Shown: positions 9,539 to 61,665 of the stretch, piece after piece
Layout of the letters: the number at the start of each line of letters is the position of its first letter
Position numbering within the stretch: the stretch's first letter is position 1
Origin: Patescibacteria group bacterium
Lineage (GTDB): Bacteria; Patescibacteriota; UBA1384; XYA2-FULL-43-10; 1-14-0-10-43-13
DNA: 64,000 nucleotides
Reading direction: 5' to 3'
Assembly: GCA_041674765.1 (NCBI GenBank)
Contig: JBAYVE010000001.1
Span: 134,177-198,176 of the forward strand
The notes under the pieces: generated by a model
Seen by the model: the letters and a program-made list of their open reading frames with translations, nothing else
What the model was told of the DNA's origin: nothing
Database searches by the model: none
Made by a program: the position numbers and the translations under genes

Positions 9539-9736
9539 TAGATTTCTCTCTTGAAAAGATATTAGATTTAGGTTATAAATAATAGTAACAATTAATAAGG
9601 GGAGAAACTGCCGCAGGGCGCTTTGTTCATAAAGTCCATAAAGCCAAGTTGTAATGTCATTACCAATTACCTTGTAAGCTTTAAACTTTTAACTTTATAA
9701 ACGAAAGTACGCTTTGCTTAGCAGCTGAAAGGAAAA

Positions 9737-10024
9737 ATGGTTAAGAAAGAAAGCAGCGAGAAGGTCACAGTCAAGAAAGATGACCTGATTAAGAAGTATC
9801 AAACCCACAAGAATGATACAGGCTCAACTGAGGTTCAGATAGCAATCCTCACAAAGAAAGTTTCAGATTTGACCGGTCATTTGAAAGAGCATAAGAAGGA
9901 TTTTGATTCAAGACGCGGCCTCTTAATGATGGTTGGCAAACGCAGACGGCTCCTAAACTACCTTCGAAAAAACGAAGAAGAGAAATATCAGAAAATAATT
10001 GCTGATTTGGGCCTTAAGAAATAG
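9737..10024 (+). CDS. rpsO: 30S ribosomal protein S15
   Basis: [48 protein letters not shown] matches the S15 core. Position immediately upstream of pnp. Confidence 0.9.
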
Positions 10025-10035
10025 TTTCTAAAGTT

Positions 10036-10066
10036 GCAGGTCACAACCTAATAAGTTGTGGCTTGC
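10036..10066 (+). promoter_or_regulatory. rpsO-pnp intergenic stem-loop (rpsO terminator / pnp leader hairpin)
   Basis: 12-bp stem gcaggtcacaac / gttgtggcttgc with G:U wobbles and loop ctaataa. Sits between rpsO and pnp, as in the classic autoregulated pnp leader. Confidence 0.5.
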
Positions 10067-10193
10067 ACTTTATAAATTAGTAATGCCAGACAGAGCATTA
10101 AGACAAAGTATGAAGTATGAAGTTAAAAGTATTATATAATACTGGTAACTCGATACTTTATACTCTTGACTCTATACTGGCTGAAAGGATTGC

Positions 10194-12332
10194 ATGGCAA
10201 TCAAGAAGTTGGAATTTGCTCCTCGTACCTACGAGGTAGCTTTTGGCGAGAAAACATTAACTCTGGAGACTGGAAAACTGGCCGGACTCGCCAGCGGCTC
10301 GATGACGGCAAAATATGAAGATACAGTCATTTTGGCGACAGTGGTAGTTGCGCCGGAACCAAAAGACGGGGCGGATTTTTTCCCTTTGATGGTGGACTAT
10401 GAAGAGAGATTCTACGCAGCTGGCAAGATTTCCGGAAGCCGTTTTATCAAGCGTGAAGGTCGCCCTTCGGATGCCGCCGTTTTGGCCTCCAGAAAAATTG
10501 ACCGTCCGATTAGACCGCTTTTCCCCAAGGGATATAGAAATGATGTCCAGATAATTATTACCGTTTTATCTTATGACGGCTCGATCGATACGGATGTGAT
10601 TGGCACAATTGCCGCTTCAGCCGCTCTAATGCAGACAAATGCACCTTTTAAGGGTCCGATTGCCTCAGTCAATGTCGGGCTGATTGACAATAAGTTTGTT
10701 TTAAATATGTCGGAGGATCAGGTTGAGAAATCAGCCTTGAATTTGACTTTTGCCGCCAATAAAGACCGCATTATGATGATTGAGACAGAATCAAATGAAA
10801 TTTCAGAAGAAAAGATTTTCGAAGCCATTGATTTCGGGCATAAGGCAATGCAGGCTGCTATCGATATTCAGCACAAAATTGCTGAAGATCATCAACGTCA
10901 AGTTATCGAGCAGGAGGAAGAGAAAACTGTCGGTGTTAAAGCTGAAGTTTCCAATCTTGTAGCGGATAGGATCAAAGATGCATTAGCCGAAGTGGATAAA
11001 GAAGAACGTGCGTTGATGTTGAAGTCTTATGAGGAGGAAGTTCTTTCAACTTTGGAGGGATCCTACAAGCAGATCGACATCAAGAGTGCTTTTTCAAAGA
11101 TTGTTGAAAAACAGGTTCGGGAGATGATACTTGTAAATGGTGTCCGACCCGACGGTCGAGGTATGGAGGAAATTCGTCCACTCAATATTGAAGTCGGATT
11201 ATTACCTCGTCCTCACGGATCAGCCTTATTTACCCGTGGCCAGACTCAATCACTGACTGTTGCAACACTTGCTTCTCCTGGAATGGAACAGTTGATAGAC
11301 ACGATGGAAGGTGAGTCGACCAAGAGGTTTATGCATCATTATAATTTCCCTCCATTTTCAACAGGTGAAGTTAAACCAATTCGTGGTACCGGTAGACGTG
11401 AGCTCGGACATGGTTATCTGGCTGAAAAAGCCCTGAAACCAATGATTCCTGACGATGAGTCATTTCCATACACGATTAGACTTGTTTCCGAAATCCTAAG
11501 CTCAAACGGCTCTAGCTCAATGGCAGCAACCTGTGCATCAACCTTGGCGCTGATGGACGCGGGTGTACCAATCAAGAAACCGGTAGCTGGGATTGCTATG
11601 GGCTTGGTCACAAGCCCTGACGCTTCAGAATATAAGGTTCTTTCGGATCTTCAAGGGCTAGAGGATTTTGCCGGAGATATGGATTTCAAGGTTGCAGGTA
11701 CGAAAGATGGAGTTACCGCTATCCAGATGGATACAAAGATCTGTGGTCTTACTTTCGATATCATCAAAGATACTCTCGATCAAGCCAAAAAAGGTCGGAT
11801 GGAAATTATGGAAGCGATGCTCGCTGTAATCCCTGAGCCTCGCAAAGAATTATCAAAATATGCGCCTAAGATAGAGGCCATCAGAATTAATCCTGACAAG
11901 ATCGGTGAGCTAATTGGACCAGGAGGAAAGACTATCAAGAAGCTTGTCGAAGAGTGCGGTGGCAAGGAAATAATTAGTATTGATATAGAGGACGATGGCA
12001 CAGTGATGGTTTCCTCGGTTGATCCGGAGATGGGCGAGAAAGCAATTTCGATGATAAAAGCGATGACTCGGGATATAACTGTCGGCGAAGTATTCACCGG
12101 ACAAATTGTTGACATTAAGAAGGATAGAATGACAGGAAAAGAGATCGGCGCTATTATGCAGCTGACGCCAAAGCTTGATGGTATGATTCATATCTCTCAG
12201 ATCTCAATGGAGAGAATTGAAAAAGTTTCAGATAAATTGAAAGTAGGGCAAGTGGTAACTGCAAAAGTTGCAGAAGTTGATCCGATGAAAGGCCGGATAG
12301 GTCTAACGATGAAGGGTATAGAGCAGAAATAG
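10194..12332 (+). CDS. pnp: polynucleotide phosphorylase
   Basis: 712 aa. Two RNase PH domains, motif GDMDFKVAGT, KH motif IGPGGKTIKKL and a C-terminal S1 domain. Confidence 0.95.
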   Translation: MAIKKLEFAPRTYEVAFGEKTLTLETGKLAGLASGSMTAKYEDTVILATVVVAPEPKDGADFFPLMVDYEERFYAAGKISGSRFIKREGRPSDAAVLASRKIDRPIRPLFPKGYRNDVQIIITVLSYDGSIDTDVIGTIAASAALMQTNAPFKGPIASVNVGLIDNKFVLNMSEDQVEKSALNLTFAANKDRIMMIETESNEISEEKIFEAIDFGHKAMQAAIDIQHKIAEDHQRQVIEQEEEKTVGVKAEVSNLVADRIKDALAEVDKEERALMLKSYEEEVLSTLEGSYKQIDIKSAFSKIVEKQVREMILVNGVRPDGRGMEEIRPLNIEVGLLPRPHGSALFTRGQTQSLTVATLASPGMEQLIDTMEGESTKRFMHHYNFPPFSTGEVKPIRGTGRRELGHGYLAEKALKPMIPDDESFPYTIRLVSEILSSNGSSSMAATCASTLALMDAGVPIKKPVAGIAMGLVTSPDASEYKVLSDLQGLEDFAGDMDFKVAGTKDGVTAIQMDTKICGLTFDIIKDTLDQAKKGRMEIMEAMLAVIPEPRKELSKYAPKIEAIRINPDKIGELIGPGGKTIKKLVEECGGKEIISIDIEDDGTVMVSSVDPEMGEKAISMIKAMTRDITVGEVFTGQIVDIKKDRMTGKEIGAIMQLTPKLDGMIHISQISMERIEKVSDKLKVGQVVTAKVAEVDPMKGRIGLTMKGIEQK

Positions 12333-14526: not shown

Positions 14527-16362
14527 ATGAATGAAGAAATGAAAAAAACAGGTTCCGCCCAAGTGGGAGAAACCGAAAGCAAAGAGAGGGATCAAAAACT
14601 GAACTCTGCTCTGAAGAACAATGCGGTTGAGACACGCTACACCGCGCAACAAGTTGACTTGAACAAGTCAAAGTTTTTCTACGAACCAAAATTAAAAGTT
14701 ATTCCGCTTGGCGGGGTTGAAGAAACCGGTGGCAAGAACTGTACCGTCATCGAATACAAAGATGACATTCTAATTGTCGATATGGGTTTTATGTTTCCGG
14801 ACGAAAGTATGCCGGGTGTTGACTATGTTATCCCGGATGTTAGCTACCTGGAACAGAATAAGAAAAAAATTAGAGGTCTGATTATCACTCATGGCCACTT
14901 GGATCATATCGGCGCGATCCCTTATGTTTATGAAAAAATCGGCTCTCCGATTATCTATTCTGCGCCACTTACACTTGGTATTATCAAGAGCAAGCTCGAA
15001 GAATTTGGTTTGGACAAGAGAGCTAAGCTCTCGCCCATAAAACCCGGTGAAGATGTGCTGCAGCTCGGTTGTTTCAAAATTGAGAGCTTCAAGGTAAACC
15101 ATAGCATTCCGCAAGCGATGGGTTTTGCAATCACAACTCCGGAAGGAGTTATCGTTGATACAGGCGACTTCAAATTTGATCACACTCCTGCAGACGGTAA
15201 ACCTGTCGATTTCTCCGCTATTGCAAAAATTGGCGACAAAAAACCGATTCTATTGATGGCAGACTCAACCAATATTGAAAAACCCGGTGTCTCCATCTCT
15301 GAGAAGGTCTTGGAAGATTCCTTAATGTCTGTTATGGAAAATGCACAAAATCGACTGATCGTGTCCACCTTTTCGACTTTGATCGGTCGTATTCAACAAA
15401 TTTTAAATGTATCGAAGAAGCTTGATCGCAAAGTTTGTTTTGTCGGTCGAAGTATGGTCACGACCGTTGATATCGCTATCTCCCTTGAAGCACTGATCGT
15501 TCCAAAAAACACAATTATCGATGTTAAAGAATTGAATAGATATCCAGATAACAAGGTTGTAATCGTCTGCACGGGTTCACAGGGTGAAGATAATGCGGCA
15601 CTGACTAGGATAGCGACAGGCGAGCACCGTCAGGTCAAGATGAAAAAAGGCGATCTCGTCATTCTTTCGTCTTCGCCGATTCCGGGAAATGAGCGTGCGG
15701 TTTCGGGCTTGATGGATAATCTTTTCCGTGCTGGTGCCCAAGTTGTTTACCAAAAACTTATGGATGTTCATACTTCCGGGCATGCCAATCAGGAAGATAT
15801 CAAGCTAATGCTTGCACTGATCAAGCCAAAATATCTGATGCCAGTTCATGGCGAACGTTTTAGATTAATGCTGCACAGCCAAATTGCTCAAGGCATCGGC
15901 ATTGTTGACGAAGAGCACTGTCTTGTTGCCGATGATGGTCAAGTGATCGAATTTAGCAAGGGTAAAGGCGAAGTTACAAACAAGCGTGTACCAGCCTCTT
16001 ACGTAATGGTTGATGGTCTTGGTGTCGGCGATGTCGGCAATATCGTATTGCGGGATCGAAAAGCGATGGCGCAGGATGGTATCTTCGTCGTTATCGTTAC
16101 GGCCGATCATCAAAATGGTCAGATTTTGACCTCGCCGGATATTATTTCTCGCGGGTTCATCTATATGCGTGAAAGCGAGGATCTGGTTCACAAAGCCAGA
16201 GCCGAAGTAAAGAAAATATTTGCCAGATATACTCAAGTAAAAACAGGGGCGAAGCCCGATTTCTCAATCGCAAAACAAAAATTGCGAGATGAATTAGGTG
16301 AATTCCTGTTCAAAGAAACCGAGAGAAGACCGATGGTCATCCCTGTAGTTATTGAGGTTTAG
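14527..16362 (+). CDS. rnj: ribonuclease J
   Basis: Metallo-beta-lactamase motif HGHLDHIGA, a beta-CASP region and a C-terminal domain. About 610 aa. Confidence 0.9.
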   Translation: MNEEMKKTGSAQVGETESKERDQKLNSALKNNAVETRYTAQQVDLNKSKFFYEPKLKVIPLGGVEETGGKNCTVIEYKDDILIVDMGFMFPDESMPGVDYVIPDVSYLEQNKKKIRGLIITHGHLDHIGAIPYVYEKIGSPIIYSAPLTLGIIKSKLEEFGLDKRAKLSPIKPGEDVLQLGCFKIESFKVNHSIPQAMGFAITTPEGVIVDTGDFKFDHTPADGKPVDFSAIAKIGDKKPILLMADSTNIEKPGVSISEKVLEDSLMSVMENAQNRLIVSTFSTLIGRIQQILNVSKKLDRKVCFVGRSMVTTVDIAISLEALIVPKNTIIDVKELNRYPDNKVVIVCTGSQGEDNAALTRIATGEHRQVKMKKGDLVILSSSPIPGNERAVSGLMDNLFRAGAQVVYQKLMDVHTSGHANQEDIKLMLALIKPKYLMPVHGERFRLMLHSQIAQGIGIVDEEHCLVADDGQVIEFSKGKGEVTNKRVPASYVMVDGLGVGDVGNIVLRDRKAMAQDGIFVVIVTADHQNGQILTSPDIISRGFIYMRESEDLVHKARAEVKKIFARYTQVKTGAKPDFSIAKQKLRDELGEFLFKETERRPMVIPVVIEV

Positions 16363-48055: not shown

Positions 48056-48535
48056 TTGGAGGACAAAAGAATGGTTGCAAGAAAGAAAAACAAAAAGAAA
48101 AAAACAGGAGTCGACCTATTAAACGAAATTTCAGATAAACTCATCACTTGGGTCGGCACTACCAATTCGATTATTATTCACACGATCATTTTCATTTTTT
48201 CATTTATCTCTCATTGGATTTTCAATATTTCTTTTGATCTCGTGCTACTGATTCTTACTACAGTCGTTTCGCTGGAAGCTATTTATCTTGCCATCTTTAT
48301 CCAGCGATCTGTAAACCAGCAGGCCACCCGTCTGACCGATGTTGAGGAGACCCTCGATGATGTTGAGGAGGCCCTTGATGACGTCGAAGAATCTCTGGAC
48401 GAAGTTGAGGAATCAATCGATGATGTCGAAGAGAGTATTAGCCAGAAGGAAACAAGCGCGAATTCCAATACCGAAAAACGTCTGGAAGAAATAATTAAAG
48501 AGCTAAAAGCACTTCAGACCAATATGAAGAAATAA
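48056..48535 (+). CDS. DUF1003-like membrane protein with an acidic heptad-repeat C-terminus
   Basis: Two TM helices. Five tandem 21-nt repeats (48340-48445) encode DVEETLD/DVEEALD/DVEESLD... Confidence 0.5.
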   Translation: MEDKRMVARKKNKKKKTGVDLLNEISDKLITWVGTTNSIIIHTIIFIFSFISHWIFNISFDLVLLILTTVVSLEAIYLAIFIQRSVNQQATRLTDVEETLDDVEEALDDVEESLDEVEESIDDVEESISQKETSANSNTEKRLEEIIKELKALQTNMKK

Positions 48536-57069: not shown

Positions 57070-57170
57070 GGTTTTTTGTGAACACGTCTATTTCTGTCAT
57101 CATTAAAGTTAACGCCCCAGGGGGTGGGGCGTTTAATTAGATGGCAATTGAGGACAAGGTTCGGATACAA

Positions 57171-57402
57171 GTAGCCCAGCCTTCAGGCTGCACAAGCTGA
57201 AGCTTGGTCTACAAGAACTTTGTAGCCTACCCTTTAGGGTGATTTTGCAAGCTTCCCACTTAGTTGAAACTACCACCCTTCGCCCTAAGACTATGGCGTG
57301 GCACAGCGAGGGACAAGAAATCTTAGACTACCAGAAGTCCCATAGCTCCACCTTTCAGGGTGTTCCCAAAGTCCATTCCTTCGTAGTTCAGCCTTTAGGC
57401 TG
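57171..57402 (+). repeat. REP-like tandem array on the 5' side of the RAYT (five units)
   Basis: Units start at 57171, 57222, about 57272 (degenerate), about 57343 and 57383. Consensus GTAGCCCACCCTT(C/T)AGGGTG, a 20-nt palindrome beginning with GTAG. Spacers carry a second palindrome, caAGCTgAAGCTTg. Confidence 0.85.
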
Positions 57403-57414
57403 TCAACAAAACTT

Positions 57415-57960
57415 ATGAGACCAAACTATAAACCAAATTTTACCAACCGTCCGAATCATATTCAGCAAGATGATAGTTTTTATTTCCTTACTGTCCGAAC
57501 TGTCAATGCCCAGTGGTTTTTGCAGCCTGACCCCTACAAGCAGATTGTGTTTGACAAAATCCATGAAAAAATCAAGAAGTTTGGCTATCAGCTTATTGCA
57601 TTTGCGATTCTCAATAACCACTATCATTTGCTTGTAAAAATAGTCGATTCAAAGAAGATCGCTAAGTTTATGAACGAATTAAACGGAGCAAGTGCCAGAG
57701 AAATAAATAAGGCTGATTTTGTCATCGACCGCAAAATTTGGTGGAATTACCTCGACCACGTTATTCGAGACGAAGCTGACTTTTTCAAACATTTAAATTA
57801 TATCCACCAAAACCCGATTAAACATGGACTAACAAAGGAATTGGACTATAAATTCTCAAGCTATTCTGCTTGGGTGAGGAAGAAAGGCGTGGAATATCTA
57901 AATCATTCGTTTGAGAAATATCCGGTCGTAGATTTCAAAACATTCAACGACGAATTTTGA
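57415..57960 (+). CDS. REP-associated tyrosine transposase (RAYT; IS200/IS605-like HUH Y1 transposase)
   Basis: HUH motif NNHYHLLVKIV and a C-terminal YIHQNPIKHGL motif (the RAYT Y-x-x-NP(V/I)(K/R)xGL catalytic-Tyr region). Flanked by REP arrays. Confidence 0.85.
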   Translation: MRPNYKPNFTNRPNHIQQDDSFYFLTVRTVNAQWFLQPDPYKQIVFDKIHEKIKKFGYQLIAFAILNNHYHLLVKIVDSKKIAKFMNELNGASAREINKADFVIDRKIWWNYLDHVIRDEADFFKHLNYIHQNPIKHGLTKELDYKFSSYSAWVRKKGVEYLNHSFEKYPVVDFKTFNDEF

Positions 57961-58003
57961 GATAATAATTCCAACAAGCTGAAGCTTGATCTCCGTTTTC
58001 ATC

Positions 58004-58241
58004 GTAGCCCAGCCTTTAGGCTGATGTCACAATCTAAAGATTGTACTTCCCTAACCGGGACCAACCTTTAGGCTGATTTTACAAATTGAAGCTTGTTATG
58101 TCAGAAACCCTGTAGCCCACCCTTTAGGCTGAACTAACAAACTAAAGTTTGTTCTACGATATAATTGTAGGTCACCCTTCAGGGTGTCGTTATCAAGCTA
58201 AAGCTTGCACTACTTTTTTCCGTAGCCCACCCTTCAGGGTG
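58004..58241 (+). repeat. REP-like tandem array on the 3' side of the RAYT (five units, period about 54-55 nt)
   Basis: Units at 58004, 58058 (degenerate), 58112, 58167 and 58222. All GTAG-led and in the same orientation. Same AAGCTnAAGCTT spacer module. Confidence 0.85.
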
Positions 58242-58281
58242 TGTCTTGAGACTTGAATTGATTAGCTATTCAGAATAAGAT

Positions 58282-60477: not shown

Positions 60478-61665
60478 TTAAATAAAACAATCCCTTGAAT
60501 TTAAAATATTGTTTTCCTTGCATTTAAAACAATTATAGTTGCAATTTACTAATTCAATTCCTAAATCCTCAGAATTTAAAAGTATTCTCATCCCTTGTCT
60601 GAGTACTTTCTCTCTTTTTTCTGAAAATTCCGGTTCAAAACCGATTTTCGCCAACATTTTTTCATCAAGTAAATTCCAGCTATTTGGCACAAACTGATAA
60701 TTTTTACGCAAATCCTTTGATATTCTTTCTCTAGGAATTACTATTCCAACAGGATTAGTTTGCCCACAATATCGACATTCGGTTAGTAGTCTTACATCGT
60801 CTTTGAATTCCAAGCAATCTGTTGACTGAAACTCTTCTGTCGCCCAGTAGAACTTTAGTTCTCCAAACTGTGTTCTTATTTCATCAAATTTTTGCCCAAA
60901 AACTTGCGGAAATTTACGATTGATTATTTTTTCACATCTATCAATATCTGGATGACTATTAAGATAGGCGTCAGAAATCTTTTCAAGCATTTTAGGTGAG
61001 ATTGAATAAGGCATTGACCCCACGGCCCATATTCCAGAGGAATGCAGTATAACGAGACAAAAAATAGATCCGGCCTTACTATCAAAAGTCAATAAACAAG
61101 GCTGAGCATCAAAGCATCGTGAAGGGAAATTTTGTTGAAAGCTTACGCCGTATCCCCAAGGCACACTATTGCCGCCATTTAAGACAAAGTTGATTAAGTC
61201 ATGAAAATTCTCCTTGCAATAGGCAACGCCATGTTTGCAAGCTATCGAATTTACTAGACATTTATGTATCGCTCTTAAAAATTTTTCATTAGTGGTTAAA
61301 GTCACGGGATTGTTTAAGAAAAAGGTACCTCCATCTTTATTTAATCCGTTTTCATCAACTCTGGATACGGTCATTTCATCAATGCCTTGTAAAAAAATCT
61401 TATTCTTTTCTCTCTGTCTCTTTTCGTCGCCACCACCTTTTCTTTTCCCCCTAATTCTAGGATTTCGTTGGTAGGCAAGCATCATCATTGGATGACCGTT
61501 CCGTATCCAGACATCAAGTTTGCTGAATTTTTGATTGCAGTCATCGCAAACTAAACCCTTCTCCATCTTATCCTTGCCGCCGATACATTCAGGAATAATA
61601 TGTTCTTGCCCCTTGCAGTTAGAGGTATTATTATCGCACCATAAACAAATATTTTTCTTTTCCAT
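60478..61665 (-). CDS. HNH-endonuclease-domain protein with an uncharacterised roughly 300-aa C-terminal domain
   Basis: N-terminal CLWC...HIIPECIGG...CDDCN HNH/zinc-finger signature. Basic linker. C-terminal domain with no recognisable motif. Confidence 0.55.
   Translation of the reverse strand: MEKKNICLWCDNNTSNCKGQEHIIPECIGGKDKMEKGLVCDDCNQKFSKLDVWIRNGHPMMMLAYQRNPRIRGKRKGGGDEKRQREKNKIFLQGIDEMTVSRVDENGLNKDGGTFFLNNPVTLTTNEKFLRAIHKCLVNSIACKHGVAYCKENFHDLINFVLNGGNSVPWGYGVSFQQNFPSRCFDAQPCLLTFDSKAGSIFCLVILHSSGIWAVGSMPYSISPKMLEKISDAYLNSHPDIDRCEKIINRKFPQVFGQKFDEIRTQFGELKFYWATEEFQSTDCLEFKDDVRLLTECRYCGQTNPVGIVIPRERISKDLRKNYQFVPNSWNLLDEKMLAKIGFEPEFSEKREKVLRQGMRILLNSEDLGIELVNCNYNCFKCKENNILNSRDCFI

Follow-up and report, generated by a model that had tools for sequence, protein, structure and literature searches.

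The 64-kb stretch of contig JBAYVE010000001.1 analysed here (referred to as the window) carries near its end a locus that we interpret as a REPtron, in which a single intact gene for a REP-associated tyrosine transposase (RAYT, or TnpA_REP) has on either side a short array of the cognate repetitive extragenic palindromic (REP) sequences. We put the probability of this reading at roughly 0.85. REP/RAYT systems are viewed as long-lived, domesticated replicators, and their characterisation comes mostly from Proteobacteria, Cyanobacteria and Bacteroidetes. A literature search for REP or RAYT together with the Candidate Phyla Radiation found no paper linking them. The locus is an ordinary REPtron and not a new kind of system; its sole notable point is a host lineage in which such systems are undescribed.

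The open reading frame (ORF) in the centre of the locus encodes an intact RAYT, a Y1 HUH enzyme of class 2, and thus the identity that a preliminary description of this DNA had proposed was borne out by profile, sequence and fold comparisons. The protein passes the NCBIfam model NF047646 REP_Tyr_transpos (87.9 bits; cutoff 80) and matches Pfam Y1_Tnp with 44 bits. The HUH motif (H69-Y70-H71) lies, as described, in a HYHLL segment at residues 69-73 of the ORF translation, and the catalytic Tyr129 is part of the sequence Y-I-H-Q-N-P. The RAYT tyrosine motif (NYIHQNPIKHGL, residues 128-139) is also present; its spacing, given earlier as Y-x2-NP, is in fact Y-x3-NP (Y129-IHQ-N133-P134). Searching the PDB with the protein sequence yielded as top match 4ER8, the structure of E. 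coli TnpA_REP bound to a REP hairpin, in which HLNYIHQNPIKHG of the window protein is aligned with HVDYIYINPVKHG and Y129 with the tyrosine of the DYIYINP motif (Tyr115 by count). Residues H69, H71, Y129, N133, P134, K136 and H137 are invariant across 40 aligned homologs down to 38% identity. The AlphaFold (AF2) model calculated from this 40-homolog alignment has a pLDDT of 88.7, and its top Foldseek match is again 4ER8_A (E 2e-9; TM 0.65/0.71; rmsd 2.4 Å over 142 columns).

The same comparisons bear on a rival explanation, according to which the locus is an autonomous IS200/IS605-type insertion sequence whose gene and hairpin arrays, the latter acting as left and right ends, transpose as one unit. 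The protein indeed falls within the Y1_Tnp superfamily, but it stays below the cutoff of the IS200 equivalog model NF033573 (28.4 bits; cutoff 55) while passing the RAYT model, and its fold is nearer to TnpA_REP than to the TnpA proteins of IS200, IS608 and ISDra2, which reach a TM of only ~0.49 against the model. The window holds one RAYT copy, with neither fragments nor further copies elsewhere in its 64 kb and no tnpB-like ORF among the adjoining ORFs, and the gene is flanked by variable numbers of alternating REP and inverted REP (iREP) doublets, not by one left-end and one right-end hairpin. Membership of the IS200/IS605 family was rejected on these grounds.

Each REP measures 20 nt. Its GTAG tag is unpaired and followed first by two free bases and then by a 14-nt hairpin, whose 5-bp stem (CA-NNN / NNN-TG) carries a TTYA loop; the consensus across relatives is (Y)GTAG-NN-CA-NNN-TTYA-NNN-TG. 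The 20-nt palindrome of the preliminary description recurs in both flanks (six matches with at most three mismatches; 0 in shuffles), and the 14-nt core CASCC-TTYA-GGSTG, with at most one mismatch, occurs nine times against 0.07 expected. All of these matches read on the + strand, and none falls outside 57171-57402 and 58004-58241. The second palindrome of each ~55-nt unit, CAAGC-TRAA-GCTTG, is confined to the RAYT flanks as well and has compensatory variants (CAAAC/GTTTG and CAATC/GATTG). Reverse complementation of CAAGC-TRAA-GCTTG-NN-CTAC gives GTAG-NN-CAAGC-TTYA-GCTTG, which has the layout of the first hairpin. The second palindrome therefore reads as a tagged REP on the opposite strand, and the ~55-nt unit is a standard REP/iREP pair, that is, a bacterial interspersed mosaic element (BIME) or HH heterodimer with its tags outside, reiterated in tandem. 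The earlier observation of a conserved palindrome in the spacer was accordingly real, but it had been taken for a separate element; the single orientation noted for all units holds for the first hairpins only, and the supposedly unusual two-palindrome unit was a misreading of the classical pair (PMC3333891, PMC3733652).

A covariance model, R1, built from 86 of the 90 hairpins described below, was run on the 64-kb window with filters off. It returned 13 significant REPs, eight on the + and five on the - strand, which alternate and all lie between ORFs within 57167-58247 (Table 1); ten of them score 27-35 bits, and the best other match in the 64 kb had an E value no better than 0.2. DNA folding of the REPs gave z scores of -2.6 to -3.6, the lowest for the copy directly upstream of the gene (57383-57402; predicted hairpin of -4.0 kcal/mol, z -3.6).

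Table 1. Features of the REPtron in the window. Bit scores are those of covariance model R1.
Feature	Position	Strand	Evidence and remarks
REP, GTAG-CC-CAGCC-TTCA-GGCTG	57171..57190	+	27.3 bits, E 6.5e-6; first of upstream array
iREP, CAAGC-TGAA-GCTTG-GT-CTAC (+ strand reading)	57193..57212	-	32.7 bits; HH doublet with REP 57171
REP, one stem mismatch (TACCC...GGGTG)	57222..57241	+	21.7 bits
Degenerate REP relics	57242..57382	.	Read from sequence; not significant with R1
iREP remnant (GCAAGCTT ... CTAC)	~57247-57273		Read from sequence; inside degenerate stretch
Relic REP, ATAGCTCCACCTTTCAGGGTG	57342-57362		1-nt indel; core match with one mismatch at 57349-57362
REP, GTAG-TT-CAGCC-TTTA-GGCTG	57383..57402	+	33.7 bits; ends 12 nt before RAYT start codon
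RAYT / tnpA_REP gene, 181 aa	57415..57960	+	NF047646, Pfam Y1_Tnp, 4ER8 match
iREP, CAAGC-TGAA-GCTTG	57975..57994	-	31.1 bits; 14 nt past RAYT stop; tag degenerate
REP, CAGCC stem	58004..58023	+	34.3 bits
iREP, CAATC-TAAA-GATTG	58030..58049	-	23.3 bits; compensatory stem variant; tag degenerate
REP, degenerate tag CGGG, one stem mismatch	58056..58075	+	20.5 bits
Decayed iREP, CAAAT-TGAA-GCTTG	58082..58101	-	Pattern with two mismatches; only 7.6 bits
REP, hybrid stem CACCC...GGCTG	58112..58131	+	27.5 bits
iREP, CAAAC-TAAA-GTTTG-TT-CTAC	58138..58157	-	35.1 bits, top score of window
REP, CACCC stem	58167..58186	+	28.5 bits
iREP, CAAGC-TAAA-GCTTG-CA-CTAC	58194..58213	-	30.0 bits
REP, exact consensus	58222..58241	+	33.3 bits; last REP

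Two features of the repeats bear on the hairpin and its tag. For the first, we collected from the window locus and seven related loci, on both strands, every CA-N3-TTYA-N3-TG hairpin with at least four of five pairs; GTAG played no part in picking these 90 hairpins, and their orientation was set by the loop. The tetranucleotide is found at positions -6 to -3 in 84-87 of the 90 oriented hairpins (eight loci), which confirms the earlier view of the flanking repeats as GTAG-tagged REP hairpins. The second is the variety of stems. Among copies and genomes we found CAGCC, CACCC, CACGC, CAAGC, CAAAC, CAGAC, CATGC, CACGA, CAACA, CATCC and CAGGA; in each case the opposite arm has changed in step, against an unchanging loop and unchanging closing CA/TG pairs, and the three inner pairs differ even inside one array. 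In alignment A1, which contains 83 doubly changed cells, stem covariation scores 0.50, compared with 0.09 in shuffles and at most 0.08 in slid registers. The percentage of paired cells is inflated by the selection rule of at least four of five pairs; the variety of compensated stems and the independent GTAG signal are free of that inflation. At the level of sequence comparison, this compensatory variety is evidence for selection on the REP hairpin.

The doublets, reiterated in tandem about every 55 nt, have linkers of 2-9 nt (mode 7 nt), and 105 of 109 distinct doublets are heterodimers with differing stems. In DNA folding, three of the four doublets of the window each give a pair of small hairpins; a single long hairpin of the REPIN type is favoured by the first upstream doublet alone, and weakly so (z -1.6). 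Given these findings and the lack of abundant identical copies, the designation REPIN (Bertels & Rainey) was discarded for the window doublets. A CRISPR array was likewise dismissed: an inverted REP is conserved in the 'spacers', the similarity of the repeats stays below 70% and there is no cas gene among the neighbours.

The downstream array consists of five units, starting at 58004, 58056, 58112, 58167 and 58222 with spacings of 52, 56, 55 and 55 nt, and has its true start at the inverted REP at 57975. The preliminary description of five units per array with a period of ~55 nt thus holds downstream. The upstream array has three intact GTAG units only (57171, 57222 and 57383), and its period is irregular because the stretch 57242-57382 is degenerate. 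Neither array was called by Tandem Repeats Finder, for which the units are too diverged (<70% alike), and an Rfam search over the window found nothing in the REP region, its sole match being one tRNA.

Just past a 105-aa ORF upstream of the locus, at 57101-57143, there is a GC-rich inverted repeat (TTAACGCCCCA ... TGGGGCGTTTAA) followed by a T-rich segment. From its sequence this is likely the terminator of the upstream gene, and the RAYT gene therefore probably needs its own promoter in or past the upstream array. On the other side, 2.2 kb past the REPtron, the window contains a 395-aa ORF (60478-61665, - strand) with an N-terminal HNH_5 endonuclease domain (PF14279, 29 bits) and many Cys-x-x-Cys pairs. 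A 21-nt tandem repeat at 48338-48434 (GATGTTGAGGAGACCCTCGAT; 4.6 copies, 71% match, raised GC) is unrelated to the REPs.

The exact RAYT protein is recorded on a 365-kb contig (ENA ERZ27247358 k141_2245327) as 'MAG: transposase [Patescibacteria group bacterium]', where MAG denotes a metagenome-assembled genome, and two contigs, each from a different sample, carry the identical protein. We found more than 100 homologs at 40-75% identity; those that are named belong to Candidatus Berkelbacteria, which provides the closest ones, or to Patescibacteria, and the named homologs of the hydrolase neighbouring the RAYT give the same picture. By these protein matches, the host of the window REPtron is a member of the Patescibacteria and Berkelbacteria-like, in agreement with the host suggested earlier from gene content.

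The architecture of the locus recurs in the relatives. Alternating REP arrays on both sides of the RAYT gene are present in the related loci L003, L030, L031, L045/L048, L047, L050, L059, L061, L174 and L175, and all homolog loci examined with a RAYT at least ~57% identical have this REP type on both sides. No REP of the window type was found in L052, whose RAYT is 43% identical. In L174 (RAYT 57% identical; 9681-10760) all 18 of 18 flanking REPs are tagged TGAG or AGAG, with the distance of the GTAG tag kept. Similarly, the dispersed REPs of MAG WY5.bin166 (L011, L013, L017 and L034) are mostly tagged TGAG, AGAG or GGAG and occur on at least four contigs; the fetched stretches of this MAG contain no RAYT. 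The occurrence of TGAG/AGAG tags alongside a diverged RAYT clade suggests covariation of tag and enzyme.

The change of the tag along with the RAYT clade, together with the consistent flanking of the gene, speaks against the view that the hairpins serve the host in the first place, as RNA or DNA signals such as attenuators, protein-binding sites or stabilisers of mRNA 3' ends, and that a transposase-like gene lies next to them incidentally. Such a view would be in keeping with the extragenic position of the family members, with the roles of this kind that REPs have in other bacteria (PMC3733652), and with one iREP that, together with T-rich sequence (58194-58207), matches a simple terminator scan. 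The stems, however, are only 5 bp long and usually lack a T-run, and terminator-like matches barely exceeded what shuffles give (five against 2.2); a promoter scan likewise showed no useful excess over shuffles. We give this explanation hardly any credence as an account of the locus; it concerns secondary uses of the hairpins, which are compatible with a REPtron.

Several observations weigh against the interpretation as a REPtron. The upstream array is partly decayed, and the stems of the window hairpins have only 5 bp, without a mismatch in most copies. The R1 search found 0 REPs outside the RAYT flanks, that is, in the other ~62.9 kb of the window, and RAYT-less related contigs (L176-L178; 44 kb) contain no REPs either. 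The high copy number and dispersal by which REPs are defined are thus absent from this window, and the element may here be low-copy or confined to the REPtron. RAYT homologs are found in unrelated gene neighbourhoods in most genomes compared, including the window, L047, L048 (within a type IV pilus operon), L050, L052 and L174. Finally, L178 keeps a 137-aa gene (81% identical) and the serine hydrolase without a RAYT or REPs, and blastn homology between the window and L178 (9362-9969) resumes at 58253, 12 nt past the last REP; this break would also fit a unit that moved or was gained or lost as a block. The upstream side of L178 holds unrelated genes that are not syntenic with the window, and it is therefore not a clean empty site.

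The absence of dispersed copies and the decay within the arrays, including the degenerate middle of the upstream array and the loss of tags at 57975, 58030 and 58056, would be expected if the locus were a decaying or inactive relic, with arrays that arose by local tandem duplication round a formerly active gene in a genome devoid of dispersed REPs. Most RAYT-bearing relatives likewise have nearly all their REPs at the REPtron; strays are found 1.3-3.4 kb from the RAYT in L048, and one doublet lies 8.4 kb off in L050. We nevertheless consider a relic unlikely: the ORF is full length (181 aa, like most homologs) with all invariant catalytic residues intact, the majority of the REPs retain high R1 scores, and the absence of dispersal covers 64 kb of a 365-kb contig, not the genome.

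Dispersal is evident in related genomes. We scanned JGI metagenome contigs with the stem-agnostic doublet pattern GTAG-NN-CA-NN-CTTYAG-NN-TG-N1-9-CA-NN-CTRAAG-NN-TG-NN-CTAC, which matches at least 120 loci. Only two of the 80 loci that were fetched contain a RAYT homolog; doublets without the gene in the remaining 78 argue against an insertion sequence that moves as one unit. Within the fetched metagenome loci, 84% of 281 REPs are outside open frames of at least 120 codons, whereas only 18% of the bases fall outside such frames. One locus, L115, with six REP clusters spread over 9.3 kb, encodes an Obg protein 99% identical to a Candidatus Berkelbacteria protein. Five proteins encoded in REP-dense loci had no exact counterpart on record. 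Within the same lineage the family is therefore repetitive, extragenic and palindromic, and a purely local duplication is an account that may suit this genome but does not extend to the family. The preliminary description had named absence of the palindrome from the rest of the genome as grounds against a dispersed REP family; within the window that absence holds, whereas related genomes carry dispersed copies. Scanning viral contigs for the doublet gave 0 matches and hence no sign of phage carriage.

Matches elsewhere were considered one by one. A 20/21 match to the iREP at 58191-58211 is located at 15798-15818 of the window, in the RMMBL domain of an RNase J gene (14527-16362); it differs in loop and tag and was put down to chance. 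The 20-mer GTAGCCCACCCTTYAGGGTG forms in other genomes the core of a longer repeat, GTAG-CCCACCC-TTYA-GGGTGGG with a conserved tail (for example TGAGCGAAGCGAA or TTTCTATTC), which is dispersed over many contigs of an Elusimicrobia CG06 MAG (L004, L008, L010, L015, L016, L022, L027, L032, L033, L037, L039, L040, L043 and L046) and of a Zixibacteria Dive100 MAG (L012, L018, L019, L026, L036 and L038). Kinship with this repeat was rejected, and the match was treated as a coincidence of GTAG with a GC-rich stem. One copy of the longer repeat, in L019, is preceded ~600 bp upstream by a distant RAYT (30% identical). At ~1920-1990 of L008, upstream of one Elusimicrobia REP, at least three 12-mers ((GTAGCCCACCCT)n) are arranged in tandem; they are truncated 5' halves of the REP, head to tail. 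The doublet pattern also matches high-GC metagenome loci (L068, L096, L114, L123 and L127; GC 0.62-0.67) that are unlikely to be Patescibacteria, and thus the doublet layout probably exists in other phyla too.

On the question of a mobile unit or a resident gene, L050 and L175 are informative, as in both the REPtron occupies the same position in a polysaccharide-biosynthesis cluster. The RAYTs of the two loci are 80-82% identical although the ten neighbouring genes are only 28-78% identical, and the REP arrays differ in number and sequence. Such a pattern is that of a gene passed on vertically and kept by selection while its arrays turn over quickly, as described for E. coli REPtrons (PMC3333891); it does not fit a hopping insertion sequence. 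The unrelated contexts of the homologs and the break in L178 are points in favour of an insertion sequence, as is the position of many homologs on contigs of 1-3 kb, where repeated elements are often found. These short contigs are equally explained by assembly breaks at the REP arrays, which, to judge from the number of homologs on them, probably disrupt metagenome assemblies. Taken together with the profile scores, fold, copy number and flanks described above, we regard an IS200/IS605-type element as very unlikely.

The mechanism that we propose for the REPtron is modelled on E. coli, where TnpA_REP binds single-stranded REPs via GTAG and the hairpin and cleaves at the adjacent iREP or the linker via a 5'-phosphotyrosine intermediate, with strand exchange between sites (PMC3333891). 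By analogy (PMC3333891, PMC3479197) we infer binding, cleavage and mobilisation by the window RAYT. The enzyme would bind the folded REP on single-stranded DNA, for example at a replication fork, through tag and hairpin. Tyr129 and a metal site formed by His69 and His71 would serve to cut the strand at or beside either the inverted partner REP or the linker. Strand transfer could then copy or recombine doublets, giving rise to arrays when it occurs locally and to extragenic seeding when it occurs in trans. In recognition, the TTYA loop and the closing CA/TG pairs would count along with the tag, and doublets would be the unit acted upon. E. coli TnpA_REP requires a stem mismatch (PMC3333891). 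Since most window hairpins are perfect, a mismatch cannot be the recognition feature here, and the rules must differ from those of E. coli.

More tentatively, and at slightly less than even odds, Berkelbacteria and related Patescibacteria may possess a vertically inherited REP-RAYT system of their own. It would be built on a minimal 14-nt hairpin, with an enzyme that reads tag, loop and closing pairs and leaves the three inner pairs free to drift in a compensatory manner; the tag (GTAG here, WGAG with a 57%-identical RAYT) would co-evolve with the RAYT clade, and the REP load would vary between the REPtron only, as in this genome, and about one cluster every 1.5 kb, as in L115. If so, these episymbiont genomes of ~1 Mb would offer a compact natural system in which to follow the birth and death of REP populations. 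The window locus and its relatives in any case place a complete REPtron of classical architecture in ultra-small Patescibacteria genomes, at a gene whose present annotation is 'transposase' only. The repeat is unusually small, and its rules can be read from natural variation (fixed tag, loop and closing pairs; free inner stem), which provides a testable model of a RAYT substrate.

Among known systems, the closest in organisation is the E. coli REPtron, a name introduced by Ton-Hoang et al. 2012 (PMC3333891) for tnpA_REP (yafM) bordered by BIMEs, with the protein structure 4ER8 (PMC3479197). Both have a single Y1/HUH gene, alternating REP/iREP pairs on both sides and an unpaired GTAG 5' of the hairpin; the paired REPs are of different types, like y and z of E. 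coli, and the tyrosine motifs align as Y-x3-NP-(I/V)-KHG. Unlike E. coli REPs, which are imperfect palindromes of 30-40 nt, those of the window are 20 nt long, have a perfect 5-bp stem around a loop of 4 nt, and keep two free bases between tag and stem. The proteins are ~23% identical, with HMH in E. coli and HYH here as the HUH motif, and in the alignment a conserved W-Q/E position is L-D in the window RAYT. The Patescibacteria host and the lack of dispersed copies in 64 kb set the window locus further apart.

The REPIN-RAYT systems of Pseudomonas and Enterobacteria (PMC3116915, PMC5581495) share with it a RAYT (here, one copy in 64 kb) that has inverted REP doublets on its flanks, the doublet as the apparent repeated unit and signs of vertical inheritance (here, the L050/L175 synteny). 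They differ in that the window doublets mostly have unlike stems and fold, in three of four cases, as two hairpins instead of one long REPIN hairpin, and in that no abundant population of a near-identical 'master sequence' is seen here. By its motifs the window RAYT belongs to neither group 2 nor group 3 of Bertels.

The preliminary description's characterisation of RAYT/REP systems as classically proteobacterial is outdated: GTAG-tagged REPs are known from more than 80 species in eight phyla (Di Nocera et al. 2013, PMC3733652), and TnpA_REP proteins occur outside Proteobacteria in several phyla (PMC6006769, PMC5581495), with subclasses in Cyanobacteria, Bacteroidetes, Planctomycetes and Acidobacteria (Quentin et al. 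2018, PMC6006769). The window RAYT (NHYH, YIHQNP, 181 aa) appears to be near subclasses 2.6 and 2.8, as judged by motifs and length only. Subclass 2.6 has YIH[QN]NP and a median length of 179 aa, and NHYH occurs in subclass 2.8, for which relatives 'from other unrelated phyla' are noted; the genes of both subclasses are single-copy and flanked by secondary structures. Subclass 2.6 differs in being mostly from Bacteroidetes, with 'atypical' structures and NH[LIV]H, and subclass 2.8 in having YIHYNP and long canonical REPs (PMC6006769).

With respect to the repeats themselves, the nearest counterpart is the GTAG super-family (PMC3733652), and the likeness to its 24 published families rests on their descriptions, not on sequence. 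The host phylum here is not among the eight reported, and a fixed TTYA loop and closing CA/TG, with three inner pairs that vary within an array, distinguish the window repeats. Shared with the super-family are the GTAG tag, short stems (5-13 bp reported) and loops of 2-4 nt, a dinucleotide separating tag from stem as in GTAG-1 and GTAG-2, and sub-families with complementary stem changes. Its HH heterodimers and tandem clusters, that is, tags-outside dimers with a strong heterodimer preference and tandem reiteration, are the very arrangement that borders the window RAYT on both sides.

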